Shown here one piece after another: positions 994 through 57,624 of a stretch of 64,000 nt of DNA. The DNA lies in the NCBI RefSeq assembly GCF_056746865.1, contig NZ_CM163382.1; one strand, 5' to 3'. Position 1 is the stretch's first letter; each line of letters opens with the position of its first letter. The position numbers and the translations under genes were made by a program. The notes below the pieces were generated by a model. It saw nothing but the letters and a program-made list of their open reading frames with translations. It did not search any database and had not been told where the DNA came from.

Positions 994-1200
994 CGAAGGA
1001 TGAAGAAAACTTGCGAGGCGTCCCGATGATCTGAAAAATGGCGCAGTAGAATTTTTTCTACAGGTTATATTGGAAGCAAATATTTAAATATTACATATTC
1101 AGCGAAGAAATGCGTAATAAAAATACATATTGCGCCTCCTGAAAAAATAAATTTTTTATGCTATTACGTATATTCGTATCTATTTCAATGGAATGACAAT

Positions 1201-13389: not shown

Positions 13390-14225
<836 letters not shown>

Positions 14226-16764: not shown

Positions 16765-16800
16765 AAGCCTGATCAGGGTTACCTGATCAGGCTTTTTTAT
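16765..16800 (+). terminator. Rho-independent terminator of argS
   Basis: aagcctgatcag-ggttac-ctgatcaggctt followed by TTTTTT. Confidence 0.8.
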
Positions 16801-16921
16801 TGCCATCTAAATGTATTCTGAAAATGGACATGCCATCGTTTTCTCACTGTTGGGTAAGAAGTCAGAAGCGTAATATTCGGCCCCAGGGAAACGATAACGG
16901 TTGAATTTAAGGAATACCGCA

Positions 16922-32157: not shown

Positions 32158-32190
32158 AAAAAAAGCAGCGGTACGTCGTTACCGCTGCTG
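32158..32190 (-). terminator. Rho-independent terminator immediately after flhC (flhDC operon end; also expected MotR 3' end)
   Basis: Minus strand: gcagcggta-acgacg-taccgctgc followed by U7. Confidence 0.7.
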
Positions 32191-32252
32191 GAATGTTGCG
32201 CCTCACCGTATCAGTTAAACAGCCTGTACTCTCTGTTCATCCAGCAGTTGTG
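32158..32252 (-). ncRNA. motR: Candidate MotR sRNA (sigma-28-dependent, from the motA 5' UTR)
   Basis: Sigma-28 promoter at 32259-32285 inside the flhC 3' end and intrinsic terminator at 32158-32190 before motA delimit a roughly 95-nt transcript, as described for MotR. Ends not verified. Confidence 0.4.
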
Positions 32253-32795: not shown

Positions 32796-33146
32796 TCAGG
32801 CCCTTTTCTTGCGCAGCGCTTCTTCAGGCTGATTAACATCATTCAGCAAGCGTGTTGAGAGCATGATGCCGGTATGAATTTGCTGGAGATCGTCAACGCG
32901 GGAATCTTGCGTCAACTGAGTAATCGTCTGGTGGCTGTCAAAACGGAAGTGACAAACCAGTTGATTGGTTTCTGCCAGCTTAACCATTTGCGGAAGAGTC
33001 AGTGCCGCTAACGTTGTCGCCATTTCTTCATTTATGCCGAGACGAAACATAGCGGACGCTTTGTCCTGAACAATCAAACGCTGTGCAAGTAGTAAATATG
33101 ACAAGTTGATGTCATAAATGTGTTTCAGCAACTCGGAGGTATGCAT
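32796..33146 (-). CDS. flhD: Flagellar master regulator subunit FlhD (116 aa; 119 aa if the upstream ATG is used)
   Basis: ORF 32796..33155 ([22 protein letters not shown]...); start placed at MHTSELL as in the structurally characterised protein. Confidence 0.93.
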
Positions 33147-33925
33147 TATTCCCACCCAGAATAACCAACTTTATTTTTATGCGGTTTCACCGCACCCCGT
33201 GATGTCGCCGGGAAGCCCCGGTAAAAAATAATTAGCATTAGAATAGTTGCGATAAGCTGCAATAAGCAGAACCACCTTTTTGGTTTAATATGTCCTTACA
33301 AATAGAAATGGGTCTTTACACTTATCTAAGATTTTTCCTAAATCGACGCAACTGTACTCGTCACTACACGCACATACAACGGAGGGGGGCTGCGATTTTC
33401 AATAATGTGTGATGCAGATCACACAAAACACTCAATTACTTAACATAAATGTATAAGTCATACTTTTGTTTTGGGTGTATTTCAATCTGTTAAAAAGTTT
33501 TTCGCTACGCTAGCAAGCAAAAATGAAACAGGAATAATCGAAATGGGATGTTGCGCACAGTCAAAATAACTCACCGTAAATAATCATCTGCTATAAATAA
33601 TCACTTTCATGCAATACCAGATAAGCTATTTTTAAACAGACACTTACCGCACAACAAACTAATTAAATACAAAGAAAGGCAACAATCAACTTAATGTTAA
33701 TGAAATGTTTTGCATATATTAACCACTTGTTTAATGCGGAGAATCAGTACACTATTTTCTTATAATTACATTTGAAATTATATGATCACCGGGAGTGATT
33801 GATTAATTGTCTTTACTAATAATCAGACTAATATTTACCTGTTTGACCGAGTTGGGATTGCGTCGTTTCTCCATTAGGAGTAAAGCTTTAATGTCACCTG
33901 AAGTTCACAGAATAAGGAACAGGTT
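33147..33925. promoter_or_regulatory. flhDC class 1 promoter / long 5' UTR and divergent uspC promoter region (about 780 bp, AT-rich, no ORF of 60 aa or more)
   Basis: Long AT-rich non-coding region between divergent flhD and uspC; known hub for CRP, OmpR, RcsAB, LrhA, H-NS and several sRNAs. No IS terminal repeats visible. Confidence 0.7.
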
Positions 33926-41605: not shown

Positions 41606-41682
41606 CATCGGCGCTAATGCATTGCGCCGATGAAGGTTTTGAGAAACCGCTGCCTCATCTGTTTGAAGCAGCGGTTTTTTTA
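41606..41682 (+). terminator. Tandem hairpins after ftnB; the second (aaaccgctgc...gcagcggtttttttt) is a likely intrinsic terminator, bidirectional with yecJ
   Basis: catcggcgc-taatgcatt-gcgccgatg, then aaaccgctgc-N14-gcagcggttt followed by T-tract. Confidence 0.6.
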
Positions 41683-41931
41683 ATGGGATTCACCCTGTGG
41701 GGTAAACTTGAGTTCAATAAGCGCGATGGCTTTTTGGATTGCCCGCATGGTGACCGGGTCTGCGGCGGCGGGATGGTTAGTAAAGTCGATATTCTTCAGC
41801 TGACTGGACATTTTTTCACGAACTTCAACGGGCGCGATTACATCGAGAACATCCAGAATTTGTTTGATAACCAACTGGCAAGCAACCACATCAGAAACCA
41901 GTTCCTGATCGGCATTCAGCGGCTGGGACAT
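41680..41931 (-). CDS. yecJ: DUF2766 family protein YecJ (83 aa)
   Basis: ORF 41680..41931. Confidence 0.85.
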
Positions 41932-42017
41932 CGTAAACTCCTGATAGCATTTTGAAAGCCGTTATAGTAGCGGCTTCACATCTTCAGCGATAGTCACATC
42001 CACCGTCATCAGGACAC

Positions 42018-42045
42018 AAAAAAACCTGCCGGAGCAGGTTTTTTG
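42018..42045 (-). terminator. Rho-independent terminator of the azuC (AzuCR/IsrB) transcript
   Basis: Minus strand: acctgc-tccg-gcaggt followed by U7, immediately after the azuC stop. Confidence 0.75.
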
Positions 42046-42132
42046 TTATCGGAACATATTGCCTGGCGGTACGTCTTTGAACGTCTTGCAATAGTTATTG
42101 AACATACTTTTCAGTATTTTGCGCAGTTTCAT
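42046..42132 (-). CDS. azuC: Small protein AzuC (28 aa), MKLRKILKSMFNNYCKTFKDVPPGNMFR; carried on the dual-function sRNA AzuCR (IsrB)
   Basis: Not in ORF track (under 60 aa). Reverse complement of 42046-42132 translates exactly to the 28-aa AzuC sequence; terminator follows directly. Confidence 0.85.
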   Translation of the reverse strand: MKLRKILKSMFNNYCKTFKDVPPGNMFR

Positions 42133-42394
42133 CGCGGCACTCCGACCATTTGTTATACAGGTGTTATTGTCTTTGCACTTATAATATGACAACCATCACA
42201 AAAATCAATCTTTATGTGATGTGAATCACATAAATACCCCTTTAATGTTATAAAAATGATAATCAAAAAGCAGCTACCCCATTTCTGACACCTACAGATG
42301 GCAAGAAATAGCGCCTGCCAGGCGTCTTTTCCGGCCATTGTCGCAGCGCTGTAACGCGTAAAATAGTGCTTTCTTTTACTCTTCTGGCTGGACC

Positions 42395-42718
42395 ATGAGA
42401 CTTCTGATTCTGACTCTTTCATTAATAACGCTGGCGGGGTGTACGGTTACTCGCCAGGCCCATGTGAGCGAAGTTGACGCGGCAACAGGTATTGTACGGT
42501 TGGTTTATGACCAGGCTTTTTTGCAGCATGCCCGTACCGATCGTTATGTCAGTCGCGGGATCGCCGATCGCGCATGCCAGCAGGAAGGCTATACCCACGC
42601 TATCCCCTTTGGTCAGCCAGTAGGCAACTGTAGCCTTTTTGCGGGTTCCTTATGTTTAAATACGGAATTCACTTTGTCATATCAGTGCCATCATTCCGCC
42701 TTCCCTGTCTTTCTCTAA
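42395..42718 (+). CDS. yecR: Lipoprotein YecR (107 aa), flagellar-regulon member
   Basis: ORF 42395..42718; lipobox LAGC in the signal peptide. Confidence 0.9.
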   Translation: MRLLILTLSLITLAGCTVTRQAHVSEVDAATGIVRLVYDQAFLQHARTDRYVSRGIADRACQQEGYTHAIPFGQPVGNCSLFAGSLCLNTEFTLSYQCHHSAFPVFL

Positions 42719-45918: not shown

Positions 45919-45941
45919 ACAAAAAAACCACCCGAAGGTGG
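45919..45941 (-). terminator. Rho-independent terminator of the glyW-cysT-leuZ tRNA operon
   Basis: Minus strand: ccacc-ttcg-ggtgg followed by U7, about 45 nt after the leuZ 3' end. Confidence 0.75.
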
Positions 45942-45986
45942 TTTCACGACACTGCTTATTGCTTTGATTTTATTCTTATCTTTCCC

Positions 45987-46073
45987 ATGGTACCCGGAGC
46001 GGGACTTGAACCCGCACAGCGCGAACGCCGAGGGATTTTAAATCCCTTGTGTCTACCGATTCCACCATCCGGG
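45987..46073 (-). tRNA. leuZ: tRNA-Leu (anticodon UAA), 87 nt
   Basis: Reverse complement matches GCCCGGATGGTGGAATCGGTAGACACAAGGGATTTAAAATCCC...GGGTACCA with encoded CCA; coordinates within about 1 nt. Confidence 0.95.
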
Positions 46074-49531: not shown

Positions 49532-49989
49532 AGGAATATCTCCAGAAATAGGGATAACGCTACTGATAGTTAGTCATTCGTATATTAGCGGTTTTTATTG
49601 CAACTTTGAAACGTTAAAAATGGTGGGTATTCGATTTTTCTCTCGTTTTTGTCAATTCGATTGTCCACAGTTATGGTCACGCCCGTCACCAACGGCTTAC
49701 CGGATCGTTTCACAGTAAGCCCTGCGACGAAATGTGACAAAAATTACCTTTATTCAGCAAAAATGAAAATCAGCCCGCTGAATATGTAACATTAATTAAC
49801 CCGAACAATACGGGCAAAAAACATTCATGATAAAAATATTTATTGGTCATTATATTAACGCATTTAATAGCACCGTTGACGATACGCTCAAAAAACAACC
49901 ACTGCTATTTTTAGCAAAGCTTATGGTATACTCCGCCGCCTTAACATTTTTCACCGCAAATTTTCATTGCAACATGACGAGGAAAATAA

Positions 49990-50214
49990 ATGAGTACGCC
50001 TGATTTTTCTACTGCCGAGAATAATCAAGAACTGGCAAATGAAGTCTCCTGCCTGAAAGCGATGCTGACGCTGATGCTGCAGGCGATGGGACAAGCTGAC
50101 GCGGGCCGCGTGATGTTAAAGATGGAAAAACAGCTTGCGCTGATCGAAGACGAAACCCAGGCTGCAGTATTTTCCAAAACGGTTAAGCAAATTAAACAAG
50201 CCTACCGTCAGTAA
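49990..50214 (+). CDS. yecF: DUF2594 family protein YecF (74 aa)
   Basis: ORF 49990..50214. Confidence 0.85.
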
Positions 50215-51004: not shown

Positions 51005-51233
51005 AGTAAACCGCAACGCCCCTGAGAGTGAGTATCATTTATAATGATAATTCAAACTATCACATAAATAAGATTTATATATAATTTATATTATTCAGGC
51101 AATGAATTACTTTTGCAAGCCATCGCATTCTCTTATGTTATTAATGAGTTATGCTGATTTGTTAAGCTGTTTTATCACGCTTGAAATGGCGTCCCGCCCC
51201 GACAGGTGAATCGTCGGGGCTGATTTTTTCTTA

Positions 51234-56083: not shown

Positions 56084-56106
56084 AAAAAACCCCGCCGGTG
56101 GCGGGG
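56084..56106 (-). terminator. Rho-independent terminator of fliC
   Basis: Minus strand: ccccgcc-acc-ggcgggg followed by U6; lies after the REP element in the fliC 3' UTR. Confidence 0.7.
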
Positions 56107-56137
56107 AAGCACCTTGCTGACAAATTGCGCTTTATGT

Positions 56138-56238
56138 TGCCGGATGCGGCGTAAACGCCTTATCTGGCCTACAAAAATGTGCAAATTCAATAAATTGCAA
56201 TTCAACTTGTAGGCCTGATAAGCGCAGCGCATCAGGCA
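56138..56238. repeat. REP/BIME element (two inverted REP units) in the fliC-fliA intergenic region
   Basis: tgccggatgcggcgtaaacgccttatctggcctaca ... tgtaggcctgataagcgcagcgcatcaggca. Confidence 0.8.
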
Positions 56239-56280
56239 ATTTGGCGTTGCCGTCAGTCTCAGTTAATCAGGTTACAACGA

Positions 56281-57624
56281 TTAACCCTGCAGCAGAGACA
56301 GAACCTGCTGCGGTACCTGGTTAGCTTTAGACAGCACAGAGTTACCCGCCTGCTGGATGATCTGCGCTTTCGACATGTTGGACACTTCGGTCGCATAGTC
56401 GGCGTCCTGAATACGGGACTGCGCTTCAGACAGGTTGGTGGTGGTGTTATTCAGGTTGGTGACCGCAGAATCCAGACGGTTTTGTACGGCACCGAGGGAG
56501 GAGCGGAAAGTATCAACTTGCGAGATAGCTTTGTCTAAAAGTGCCAGCGGATCGTTGGTTGCAGTACCAGAAAATGTTGCTGTTGCCGCTGTTTTTACAG
56601 AACCATCAACATCGAGTTCATCGGTAAGTTGGATTTTTGTGTCTTCATTTGTTGCAGCGTCACCACCGTTTTCAATTGCATCCTTACCGTCTGCACCAGC
56701 AAGGTAATCTTTGCCTTGAATAGTAACATAGCCAACAGCCGCGCCAGCACTATTCGTCGTGACCTTGATAGGCTGACCTGTCTGTGTTGCTGTGGTAACA
56801 CCGTTCGCAGGATCAGTGAAAGTAACATTGGTGGTATTAAGCGTAACAACGCCACCAGCATTAACGGAAGCCGAATAGAAGTCATTACCAGATTGAACAA
56901 CATAGGTTCCTGTCGCTTTACCATCCGCGCTTTGTACGTTATGTAGGGACAAGCCTGATGTATCACTTATTCCCAATGTTTTAGCCATTGCGGCAGCAGC
57001 GGTATCGTTCGCACCAAATTTAACCGTAACCGGGGCATCGCCAGCATTAGCACCAGGAACTGTAGTTATCGCATCGCTAACTTTTAATGCGTTCCCTGAT
57101 ACCGAGAAACCTTTCAATCCCAGCGTTGAAGAATCAATTTTCTGCAAATCGATAGAGATGGTCTGCCCGTCATTCGCGCCAACCTGAATCTTCATCGAAC
57201 CGTCTTTCGCCAGCACGTTCACGCCGTTGAACTGGGTCTGACCGGAAACGCGGTCAATTTCGTCGAGACGGGATTTGATTTCGTCCTGAATGGAGTCCAG
57301 ATCCGAATCAGAGTTAGTCCCGGTAGAAGCCTGAACCGTCAGTTCACGAATACGCTGTAAGTTGTTGTTGATTTCGGACAGCGCGCCTTCAGTGGTCTGT
57401 GCAACAGAAATACCGTCGTTGGCGTTACGTGCAGCCTGAGTCAGGCCTTTAATGTTAGAAGTAAAACGGTTAGCAATCGCCTGACCTGCGGCGTCATCCT
57501 TCGCGCTGTTAATACGCAAGCCAGAAGACAGACGCTCGATAGAACTCGACAGCGCAGACTGGTTCTTGTTGATATTATTTTGAGTGATCAGCGAGAGGCT
57601 GTTGGTATTAATGACTTGTGCCAT
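56281..57624 (-). CDS. fliC: Flagellin FliC (447 aa); conserved N/C termini with a central variable (H-antigen) domain that is not K-12 H48
   Basis: ORF 56281..57624; MAQVINTNSLSLITQNNINKNQSALSSSIERLSSGLRINSAKDDAAGQAIANRF... and C-terminal ...QVPQQVLSLLQG; length 447 aa versus 498 aa for K-12. Confidence 0.97.
   Translation of the reverse strand: MAQVINTNSLSLITQNNINKNQSALSSSIERLSSGLRINSAKDDAAGQAIANRFTSNIKGLTQAARNANDGISVAQTTEGALSEINNNLQRIRELTVQASTGTNSDSDLDSIQDEIKSRLDEIDRVSGQTQFNGVNVLAKDGSMKIQVGANDGQTISIDLQKIDSSTLGLKGFSVSGNALKVSDAITTVPGANAGDAPVTVKFGANDTAAAAMAKTLGISDTSGLSLHNVQSADGKATGTYVVQSGNDFYSASVNAGGVVTLNTTNVTFTDPANGVTTATQTGQPIKVTTNSAGAAVGYVTIQGKDYLAGADGKDAIENGGDAATNEDTKIQLTDELDVDGSVKTAATATFSGTATNDPLALLDKAISQVDTFRSSLGAVQNRLDSAVTNLNNTTTNLSEAQSRIQDADYATEVSNMSKAQIIQQAGNSVLSKANQVPQQVLSLLQG

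Follow-up and report, generated by a model that had tools for sequence, protein, structure and literature searches.

The window analysed here is a stretch of 64,000 nucleotides from an E. coli strain other than K-12, and one short interval on its minus strand raises a question: does it hold a gene that is too small for the usual listing of open reading frames (ORFs), and if so, does the transcript act as a messenger, as a regulatory RNA, or as both? A first-pass annotation, made from the letters alone, had placed the small protein AzuC and its RNA, AzuCR, at 42018-42200.

Identity of the locus

The reverse complement of 42046-42132 translates exactly to MKLRKILKSMFNNYCKTFKDVPPGNMFR followed by a stop, which bears out the proposal that the segment encodes the 28-residue AzuC. 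On the homologous bases, the K-12 record carries both a CDS, azuC (b4663, “small regulatory membrane protein AzuC”), and an ncRNA, azuR (b4434), and genomes 100% identical to the window carry the RefSeq label “azuC: stress response protein AzuC” at this place. The azuC segment is found in 5419 of 5426 complete E. coli genomes, and this presence, together with the near-complete identity to the K-12 RNA (Table 1), excludes a chance match. It is very probable that the locus is the orthologue of the K-12 azuC/AzuCR gene (b4663/b4434; earlier names IS092/IsrB) and represents practically the same allele. The call of azuC/AzuCR at 42016-42174 is thus correct, and it concerns an already characterised gene, not a new one.

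Over 281 aligned columns (42270-41990), the window differs from K-12 by five substitutions and by one more at the far upstream edge (42270). The protein is identical, and the promoter, the CRP and FNR operators, the FnrS site, the Shine-Dalgarno (SD) sequence and the terminator are shared. Between K-12 and the window, the single change within the RNA is synonymous (Ile6, ATA vs. ATC, 42115), one base differs in the promoter at -3 (42177), and three spacer bases differ in the distal CRP/FNR palindrome (42221-42223; TGTGATTCACATCACA in the window, TGTGATTTGTATCACA in K-12), the half-sites being intact. The functional effect of these differences is probably nil. The neighbours are also those of K-12, with yecJ and ftnB on one side and yecR, ftnA and yecH on the other, and the gene order in the window (ftnB, yecJ, azuC, yecR, ftnA, yecH, tyrP) is the same. 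By virtue of this near-identity, what experiments in K-12 have established about the translation of AzuC, its association with the membrane and with GlpD, the lowering of cadA and galE expression, and control by FnrS and transcription factors would be expected to hold here as well.

The discovery value is therefore small: the gene, its RNA, protein partner, targets and regulators were published between 2002 and 2025 and are annotated in RefSeq. The case is of more use for calibration, in that a reading of the raw sequence recovered, with base-exact coordinates, a 28-codon gene below the 60-aa cut-off. As had been pointed out, this cut-off hides azuC, which is absent from the default ORF list (at least 60 aa). 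The suspicion that other small genes in the window might be missed in the same way was also justified, since yecV (14 aa) and yecU (58 aa) are both intact and both shorter than 60 aa. K-12 positions were converted to window positions by an offset of 1,945,827.

Table 1. Features of the azuC/AzuCR locus in window coordinates
Feature	Position	Strand	Basis and remarks
AzuCR (IsrB/IS092/azuR) transcript	42016..42174	-	K-12 azuR 1987843-1988001, 159 nt; 158/159 identity
Rho-independent terminator	42018..42044	-	A6, stem CCUGC/GCAGG, loop UCCG, U7
azuC CDS	42046..42132	-	28 codons + TAA; translation, NF033642, RefSeq annotation, open frame, codon-position entropy
Shine-Dalgarno GGAG	42140..42143	-	7 nt before ATG; read from sequence; conserved at 90% or more
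-35 hexamer TTGATT	42203..42208	-	Promoter scan; conserved at 90% or more across species
-10 hexamer TATTAT	42181..42186	-	Promoter scan, 16-nt spacer; 7 nt upstream of mapped start
Distal CRP-type palindrome TGTGA-N6-TCACA	42215..42230		Centred at -48.5; perfect consensus match
FNR repressor site	42212-42231		K-12 1,988,039-1,988,058, published (PMC12266141); overlaps distal CRP palindrome
Proximal CRP-type site TGTGA-N6-TCATA	42185..42200		Centred at -18.5; one consensus mismatch
NarP repressor site	42233..42249	-	K-12 1,988,060-1,988,076, published (PMC12266141); mapped by coordinates
FnrS target CACCUGU	42157..42163	-	RNA +12 to +18; 25-31 nt upstream of ATG
Putative AzuR base-pairing region	42061..42104	-	Inside CDS; RNA about +71 to +114, codons about 10-24

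Distribution among the Enterobacteriaceae

Homologues were sought with a mechanical 48-aa ORF of the listing as the protein query and with a degenerate DNA pattern, designed by hand to encode YCKTFKDVPP, which was run against genome contigs. Since the pattern constrains codons 14-23 at their first two positions, a second set of codon statistics leaves these codons out. The DNA pattern search found azuC in 85 DNA stretches, representing about 80-85 species of Enterobacteriaceae in more than 20 genera. Homologues are named AzuC in Citrobacter, Klebsiella, Raoultella, Leclercia, Enterobacter, Buttiauxella and Pluralibacter, and the Cronobacter homologue is annotated as a “hypothetical protein”. 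The range of azuC appears to be wider than the “limited number of enteric bacteria” of the published account (Raina 2022).

Sequence conservation forms one block, bounded by the distal CRP site (42230) on one side and by the last base of the U-tract (42018) on the other, and collapses directly 3' of the U-tract. Within the block, the peptide, the operators of the promoter, the FnrS site and the terminator all bear clear marks of selection, which is not the case for synonymous positions in the putative seed.

Promoter and transcriptional control

The transcription start of AzuCR has been mapped in K-12 to 1988001 (PMC8915982), which corresponds to the A at 42174, and a sigma-70 promoter with the -35 and -10 hexamers of Table 1 would direct initiation there. 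The sequence TCATATTAT of the -10 region is present in 79/85 species. The first-pass annotation had expected a transcript of about 160 nt within 42018-42200; the length agrees with the 159 nt of K-12 azuR, whereas the upper limit is too high, as 42200 takes in the untranscribed -10 box and part of the spacer.

Two CRP-type operators are predicted over the promoter. The distal one is among only two perfect matches to the CRP consensus in the 64-kb window, and in about 85 species its spacer varies while conservation of the two half-sites reaches 80-90% or more. The proximal one lies between the -35 and -10 boxes, overlapping the latter, and is found together with the -35 box in 71/85 species. 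When imperfect matches are included, the predicted sites in the 64 kb number three, two of them in the azuC promoter. The CRP sites of this promoter have been highlighted before (Fig. 1A of PMC8915982). The position of the proximal site would block RNA polymerase, in agreement with the published repression of the azuCR promoter by CRP (PMC8915982). The role of CRP here is thus repression and not activation, a point absent from the first-pass annotation. The published repressors of azuCR are CRP, FNR, NarP and PhoP (Raina 2022 and others). With one operator inside the core promoter, a second that would also be bound by FNR, and a NarP site just upstream of it, the layout implies that transcription would be shut down at high cAMP-CRP (no glucose) and under anaerobiosis.

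A further layer of anaerobic control would act on the message. The sRNA FnrS, whose control of azuC has been published for K-12, would pair with CACCUGU in the 5' UTR and block AzuC synthesis; this heptamer can form six Watson-Crick pairs and one G-U pair with the 5' end of FnrS, GCAGGUG (K-12 sequence), and the motif CACCTGY or CATCTGC occurs in 75/86 species. In a naive scan of duplex energies, the FnrS seed was not the top-scoring duplex.

Messenger and base-pairing RNA

The annotation had further described a transcript known as IsrB that serves both as the mRNA of a membrane-associated protein and as a base-pairing sRNA, and both activities are documented for K-12 (PMC8915982, PMC12612679). 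As a riboregulator, AzuR would use a segment inside the CDS to pair with the translation-initiation region of cadA and with the early coding sequence of galE, lowering the expression of both. Because this segment is translated, ribosomes and targets would compete for the same RNA. The limits of the pairing region in Table 1 are approximate, drawn from calculated duplexes and from the literature, which places the region within the ORF and the target sites close to the RBS of cadA and in the coding part of galE (PMC8915982, PMC12612679).

Duplexes were calculated by a 30 x 30-nt sliding scan with 40 dinucleotide shuffles and no accessibility term, which is a weak test. The best local duplex with cadA joins AzuCR +86..+114 to cadA -15..+15 (-27.9 kcal/mol; z = -1.9, 2/40 shuffles as good), and the best one with galE joins AzuCR +90..+114 to galE +16..+44 (-20.7 kcal/mol; z = +0.6, not better than shuffles). 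The cadA-pairing segment is identical to that of K-12, and the location of its duplex agrees with the literature (PMC12612679). The sliding scan replaced unconstrained duplexes of the full-length RNAs, which extended over more than 100 nt and were meaningless; three short helices between AzuCR about +71..+98 and the cadA start region were read by eye from such a duplex.

These results bear on whether the RNA is an mRNA for a small protein and nothing else, in which case selection would act on the peptide and on its translational control, and pairing by AzuR would be an effect of overexpression with little physiological role. Third-position variability over codons 15-24, within the putative pairing region, averages about 0.81 and is not lower than elsewhere, which means that no extra nucleotide-level constraint marks a conserved seed across genera. 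The duplex with cadA is only marginally better than shuffles and that with galE is no better, and RNAalifold on 86 sequences detected no conserved structure in the body of AzuCR, leaving the terminator as the only one. An SD-sequestering helix in the single-sequence fold of AzuCR (z = -2.5) found no comparative support by RNAalifold and is not claimed. Furthermore, repression of cadA and galE was seen mainly with AzuCR overexpressed from a plasmid (PMC8915982). With duplex calculations that are weak for cadA and give nothing for galE, the case for a regulatory RNA comes from the experiments in K-12, and these argue against a messenger-only RNA: compensatory mutations restored the regulation of both cadA and galE, deletion of azuCR raised the expression of cadA-gfp, the galactose growth defect persisted with a stop-codon mutant, and the RNA bound ProQ and Hfq in K-12 co-immunoprecipitation (all PMC8915982). 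We consider a purely messenger function unlikely and retain the dual-function reading.

Terminator and linkage to yecJ

Transcription of the dual-function RNA, at about 159 nt, would end at a strong intrinsic terminator. A terminator directly after azuC had been proposed from the sequence, and the hairpin at 42018-42044 indeed begins one base past the stop codon (TAA, 42048-42046), forming 11 pairs with a dG of -18 kcal/mol (z = -5.3; 0/200 shuffles as good). Depending on whether the 3' end falls in or just past the U-tract, the RNA measures 157-159 nt by sequence, compared with a published length of 164 nt (PMC8915982). The hairpin was seen by direct folding, and a consensus terminator scan of the locus did not list it, probably because the extension of the stem through A/T pairs consumes the T tail that the scan looks for. 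At the gathering score, Rfam 15 returned no family at AzuCR; the sub-threshold matches to STnc370 (33.4 vs. 54 bits, on the opposite strand) and rsmX (23.4 vs. 56) are driven by the generic terminator hairpin. AzuCR is without an Rfam model.

The terminator stem is present in every species examined; a strict pattern matched 84/86, the remaining two sequences showing a one-base difference or a truncation. Across about 86 species, CCUGC/GCAGG shows neither substitutions nor compensatory changes, and the loop takes 20 different forms. The ACCUGC that forms part of the FnrS target in the 5' UTR recurs in the 5' arm of the stem.

Downstream of azuC on the same strand lies yecJ (DUF2766), in 68/85 Enterobacteriaceae loci, and where its start can be placed, it begins about 50-90 nt past the azuC terminator. 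This tight and conserved linkage is an addition of the comparative survey. Such an arrangement would suit a leader or attenuator, that is, an AzuCR whose main task is to let terminator read-through place yecJ under the CRP/FNR-controlled promoter. Against this stand the strength of the terminator and its conserved stem, a conserved -10-like element, C-TACTAT (TACTAT at 41969-41964), which the spacer carries about 25-30 nt ahead of the start codon of yecJ, and the accumulation of the 160-nt RNA as a discrete species (PMC8915982). In addition, a literature search for an azuC-yecJ link found no paper connecting the two genes; it returned only an internal start-stop site of yecJ, and the 3'-end mapping paper held nothing on such a link. 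A role chiefly as a yecJ leader is therefore very unlikely.

A further idea, of low probability, is that azuCR and yecJ form a conserved two-gene module in which the terminator hairpin has a sequence-specific second job. The hairpin could belong to the yecJ promoter or to an upstream element, provide a second site for FnrS or ProQ, or act as a leaky terminator. If so, yecJ expression, and hence YecJ function, would be coupled to the CRP/FNR/FnrS circuit that controls AzuC.

The AzuC reading frame

As an mRNA, the transcript would be translated from the SD sequence GGAG and the ATG into a protein of 28 residues with a charge of +6 and an amphipathic helix. The product matches the NCBIfam equivalog NF033642 with 75.9 bits (cutoff 30; E = 1.3e-21; profile positions 1-26 of 26), and PF28150 is precomputed for AzuC homologues. 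The computed helical hydrophobic moment of residues 1-21 is 0.55, against 0.23 +/- 0.12 in shuffles, of which 0.44% reach 0.55, and the net charge of +6 completes the picture of a basic amphipathic peptide, compatible with peripheral membrane association. In K-12, SPA tagging, fractionation, co-purification with GlpD and dehydrogenase assays have demonstrated that AzuC is made, is membrane-localised, and binds and stimulates GlpD (PMC8915982). Ribosome profiling and Northern blotting had been named as checks, and both are in print: azuC is among the small ORFs most strongly induced by acid stress in Ribo-seq (PMC10746267), and Northern blots and SPA-tag immunoblots have been published (PMC8915982).

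The peptide is under purifying selection. Codon-position entropies are 0.20/0.21/0.81 over all codons and 0.32/0.33/0.79 when those of the search pattern are left out, so that third positions are 2.4-4 times more variable than first and second ones. The sense frame is open in 86/86 species, and coding indels are multiples of three, with a 2-nt frameshift as the one exception; in-frame 6-nt inserts occur in Kluyvera, Pseudocitrobacter and Mangrovibacter. Could the ORF nevertheless be an accident in an untranslated, non-coding sRNA? The locus was first catalogued as the sRNA IS092/IsrB, and short ORFs arise readily by chance (74 of at least 20 aa in 4.5 kb). The frame open in 86/86 species, its three-base periodicity and in-frame indels, the conservation of the SD sequence at the right spacing and the match to NF033642 all contradict a non-coding locus, which the SPA-tagged protein (PMC8915982) and ribosome footprints (PMC10746267) had already refuted; it can be given practically no credence.

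Equally improbable is a longer product of 48 aa starting at TTG 42192. This is the mechanical ORF inside which, and only inside which, azuC appears when ORFs are listed at a minimum of 20 aa, and some automated gene calls in databases carry N-terminal extensions. The TTG, however, lies in the promoter spacer, upstream of the mapped start at 42174; the TTG-to-ATG segment is poorly conserved, with indels that are not multiples of three, and the SD sequence precedes the ATG at 42132. Least credible of all is that the conserved signal comes from a plus-strand ORF (e.g., 42043-42189 or 42098-42184), since, although the exact-antisense frame is open across the CDS in 81/86 species, the variable positions are its first codon positions (the wrong periodicity), the plus-strand ORFs cross the variable 5' UTR with its frame-breaking indels, and they start with TTG and have no SD sequence or promoter. 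On this evidence, the non-coding, 48-aa and antisense readings were all rejected in favour of the 28-codon azuC.

Comparison with other dual-function RNAs

SgrS/SgrT of enteric bacteria resembles AzuC/AzuCR in its dual function: the RNA serves carbon metabolism as an sRNA, and the small protein that it also encodes targets a membrane protein. The ORF of SgrS is physically separate from its seed and both arms serve one pathway, whereas the AzuCR seed lies inside the ORF, so that the two activities of AzuCR compete. SgrS is Hfq-dependent and activated by SgrR, and AzuCR is more dependent on ProQ and repressed by CRP; the two share no sequence similarity. Spot 42/SpfP of E. coli and VcdRP of Vibrio cholerae are likewise CRP-repressed dual-function RNAs linking glucose availability to metabolism, although their sequences, targets and partners are unrelated to those of AzuCR: SpfP acts with CRP, VcdP with citrate synthase and AzuC with GlpD.

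The azuC gene and its terminator

The first-pass annotation had read azuC, a gene for a 28-aa small protein, from the raw sequence at 42046-42132, with coordinates that are correct to the base. The reverse complement translates exactly to MKLRKILKSMFNNYCKTFKDVPPGNMFR, followed by TAA. The claimed terminator, A6-CCTGC-TCCG-GCAGG-T7 (42044-42018), begins one base past the stop and folds as an 11-pair hairpin of -18 kcal/mol (z = -5.3), which none of 200 dinucleotide shuffles equaled. It is absent from the output of a simple terminator scan, probably because the T tail is consumed when the stem extends through A/T pairs. Since an A-run and a T-run flank the hairpin on both sides, the element resembles a bidirectional terminator in its predicted shape. 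Over AzuCR, the RNA of this locus, every Rfam 15 family stays below threshold; the two sub-threshold matches, to rsmX and, on the opposite strand, to STnc370 (33.4 bits vs 54, 41986-42050 (+), the hairpin read backwards), are driven by the terminator hairpin. As had been said, azuC is hidden from the ORF list at the default 60-aa limit; at 20 aa it appears only within a mechanical 48-aa ORF from TTG 42192. The peptide has a net charge of +6 and a helical hydrophobic moment of 0.55 over residues 1-21, a value reached by 0.44% of shuffles, which agrees with the membrane-associated, amphipathic nature published for the protein.

The interval 41950-42400 was matched by megablast in 5,419 of 5,426 complete E. 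coli genomes, 483 records being at least 99% identical; the matches listed are 100% identical (ATCC 8739, C and B/BL21-type strains), and the features beneath them are yecR and "azuC: stress response protein AzuC". The annotated gene order, araF, ftnB, yecJ, azuC, yecR, ftnA, yecH, tyrP, comprises the same genes as the ORFs in the window. The corresponding stretch of K-12 MG1655 is annotated with the CDS azuC (b4663, 1987873-1987959) and the ncRNA azuR (b4434, 1987843-1988001). The alignment is ungapped (constant offset 1,945,827) and places azuR at window 42016-42174, in agreement with the transcript of about 160 nt that had been proposed. Over 42270-41990, five differences from K-12 matter (Table), in addition to one base at the upstream edge, 42270. 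The peptide scores 75.9 bits against the cutoff of 30 for the NCBIfam equivalog NF033642 (stress_AzuC). The locus is AzuCR itself, already known, and not a relative.

Table. Features of the azuC region and other small genes and RNAs in the window. Positions with a minus sign count from the start A 42174.
Feature	Position	Strand	Description
yecJ (DUF2766)	41680-41931	-	same strand as azuC, downstream
azuC-yecJ spacer	41932-42017		
Substitution vs K-12	42115		synonymous, azuC codon 6, ATA vs K-12 ATC
Shine-Dalgarno GGAG	42143-42140	-	7 nt before azuC ATG
Substitution vs K-12	42177		position -3
Promoter TTGATT-16 nt-TATTAT	ends 42181	-	promoter scan; 7 nt upstream of A 42174
Proximal CRP-type site TGTGA...TCATA	centred -18.5		one mismatch; between -35 and -10 boxes
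Distal CRP-type palindrome	42230-42215, centred -48.5		perfect consensus
Three adjacent substitutions vs K-12	42221-42223		spacer of distal CRP/FNR palindrome; CAC here, TGT in K-12
Published FNR site	42212-42231		mapped from K-12 (PMC12266141)
Published NarP site	42233-42249		mapped from K-12 (PMC12266141)
MicL	13391-13697	-	K-12 sRNA match
yecV	16787-16831	-	14 aa, 100% identical to K-12
MotR	32158-32251	-	K-12 sRNA match
AsflhD	33125-33344	+	K-12 sRNA match
3'ETS-leuZ	45921-45987	-	K-12 sRNA match
yecU	49827-50003	+	58 aa, 95% DNA identity to K-12, ORF open
SdsN	51093-51229	+	K-12 sRNA match
FliX	56084-56277	-	K-12 sRNA match

Transcriptional and FnrS control

The mapped AzuCR start in K-12, 1988001, is equal to the A at window 42174 (PMC8915982). 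When the CRP consensus TGTGA-N6-TCACA was sought with at most one mismatch, three matches were found in the 64-kb window, two of them at the azuC promoter. The other, a perfect consensus, lies upstream of flhD (33408-33423). The proximal site is so positioned that it is predicted to occlude RNA polymerase, which fits the published repression of azuC by CRP, AzuC being abundant with glucose and when crp is mutated (PMC8915982). FNR, NarP and PhoP were reported in 2025 as further direct repressors (PMC12266141), and the mapped coordinates of the FNR site fall on the distal palindrome. The bases 42221-42223, at which this strain departs from K-12, are confined to the spacer of that palindrome, and its half-sites are intact.

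The 5' end of the sRNA FnrS, GCAGGUG, is complementary to CACCUGU at AzuCR +12..+18 (42163-42157). This falls exactly on the published FnrS site, "25 to 31 nt upstream of the ORF," where pairing was proved by compensatory mutations (PMC8915982). Most other species carry CACCUGC, giving seven Watson-Crick pairs with FnrS. Escherichia albertii has AACAGATATATAAC where the target AACACCTGYATAAC would stand and may therefore have lost the control of azuC by FnrS.

Messenger and riboregulator functions

The proposed dual function, as mRNA for a small membrane protein and as base-pairing sRNA, is documented in the K-12 literature (PMC8915982, PMC12612679). AzuC of K-12 co-purifies with GlpD and increases its dehydrogenase activity (PMC8915982). 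Expression over azuC, on which the first-pass annotation had made its claim depend, is on record: at pH 4.4, ribosome profiling puts azuC with the most strongly induced small ORFs, alongside glpD (PMC10746267). The sRNA seed lies inside the ORF and pairs near the cadA RBS and within the galE coding sequence, and translation competes with target pairing (PMC8915982, PMC12612679). In a sliding 30 x 30-nt duplex scan, the top cadA duplex joined AzuCR +86..+114 to cadA -15..+15 at -27.9 kcal/mol, which is marginal against 40 shuffles (z -1.9, 2/40), and the top galE duplex joined +90..+114 to galE +16..+44 at -20.7 kcal/mol, statistically no better than chance. Both lie at the locations expected from the literature. 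Among the homologous sequences, no synonymous-site constraint is visible on the proposed seed, codons 15-24 varying as much as elsewhere. The comparative and duplex data thus neither contradict nor independently establish the sRNA role, which is transferred from K-12 on the strength of an identical segment. The lone K-12 difference in the RNA, +60, is outside both duplexes. That AzuCR is an mRNA only, with no real sRNA role, is improbable, being contradicted by the published compensatory mutants.

Linkage to yecJ

azuC is tightly linked to yecJ: in 68 of 85 Enterobacteriaceae loci yecJ follows it in the same orientation, usually starting ~50-90 nt past the azuC terminator (60 loci with a heuristically placed start, some of the shorter values being heuristic miscalls). 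This conserved adjacency and the short spacer would suit AzuCR as a leader of yecJ. However, the azuC terminator is strong, and the spacer contains its own conserved -10-like motif, C-TACTAT (41969-41964), ~25-30 nt upstream of the yecJ ATG; we regard a leader as highly implausible. The promoter scan listed these bases solely on the + strand, as TATAGT. Given the position of the motif, a yecJ promoter would have a -35 region that overlaps the azuC terminator in species where the spacer is short.

Conservation across Enterobacteriaceae

Used as a protein query, the mechanical 48-aa ORF retrieved entries called AzuC from Escherichia, Shigella, Citrobacter, Klebsiella, Raoultella, Leclercia, Enterobacter, Buttiauxella and Pluralibacter, and an unnamed homologue, annotated "hypothetical protein," from Cronobacter. 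A degenerate DNA pattern encoding YCKTFKDVPP, run against a single genome of each species, yielded 85 stretches from more than 20 genera, all Enterobacteriaceae except one MAG labelled only "Proteobacteria." The range appears wider than the published "limited number of enteric bacteria."

The frame is open across 27 codons in all 86 sequences. Column entropy by codon position is 0.20/0.21/0.81 over all codons and 0.32/0.33/0.79 in the 17 codons free of search-pattern constraint. Length changes within the ORF come as insertions of 6 nt, giving MKQRMRKILK... in Kluyvera and Pseudocitrobacter and MKLRLRRILK... in one Mangrovibacter. These features point to a translated gene. The sole frame-breaking change is a 2-nt insertion near the 3' end in Enterobacter sp. 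EA-1 (L077:9941-10099; …DVPPRALCSDDKKTC), either a pseudogene or an assembly error. A non-coding-only RNA is excluded by the 3-base periodicity, the in-frame indels and published protein detection. The 48-aa ORF is excluded as the true product by frame-breaking 5' UTR indels and by the start site at 42174, which leaves its TTG untranscribed. Antisense ORFs have the wrong periodicity and run across the indel-rich UTR; the exact-antisense frame is also open in 81/86 sequences, and the gene is assigned to the - strand because that frame would make first codon positions the variable ones.

A position-by-position profile reveals a sharply bounded conserved block from the distal CRP half-sites to the U-tract, directly 3' of which conservation collapses. 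It comprises the TGTGA/TCACA half-sites, the -35 box TTGATT, TGTGA...TCATA running into the -10 box TCATATTAT, a start region that varies, the nearly invariant AACACCTGYATAAC in the 5' UTR, GGAG, the ORF and the terminator. Pattern counts gave the -10 box in 79/85 sequences, the -35 box with the proximal CRP-type site in 71/85, CACCTGY/CATCTGC in 75/86, and the strict terminator pattern (A-run, CCTGC, loop, GCAGG, T-run) in 84/86, the exceptions being one base off in the A-run and a truncated locus. Across ~86 species the loop has 20 forms but the terminator stem CCUGC/GCAGG has no substitutions or compensatory changes, which looks like constraint on sequence, not structure. The ACCUGC within the FnrS target recurs in the 5' arm of this stem (42157-42163 vs 42018-42044).

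AzuCR is grouped with SgrS/SgrT, Spot 42/SpfP and VcdRP in a small class of bacterial dual-function RNAs. Like Spot 42/SpfP and VcdRP, it is repressed by CRP; unlike in SgrS, its seed is embedded within the ORF (PMC8915982, PMC12612679). The apparently broader taxonomic range, the lack of visible synonymous constraint on the proposed seed, the invariant stem with variable loop and the yecJ linkage are small additions to this picture.

Other features in the window

Other genes below 60 aa had been anticipated, and yecV and yecU are present and intact. In this strain the yobI locus (1065-1130 (-); 21 aa in K-12) has ATATGTATT for K-12 ATGTATATT; the ATG is displaced two bases out of frame, so that the annotated frame begins with ATA (ICIFITHFF...), and the small ORF is unlikely to be made in its annotated form. 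Six further K-12-annotated sRNAs map to the window at 98-100% identity (Table). The MG1655 IS1H, upstream of flhDC, has no match in the 64-kb window, where the flhD upstream region is ~33345-33900. The flagellin allele appears different from that of K-12, as just 455 nt at the 5' end of a K-12 fliC query align (92% identity, 57170-57624 (-)); this would be ordinary H-antigen variation.
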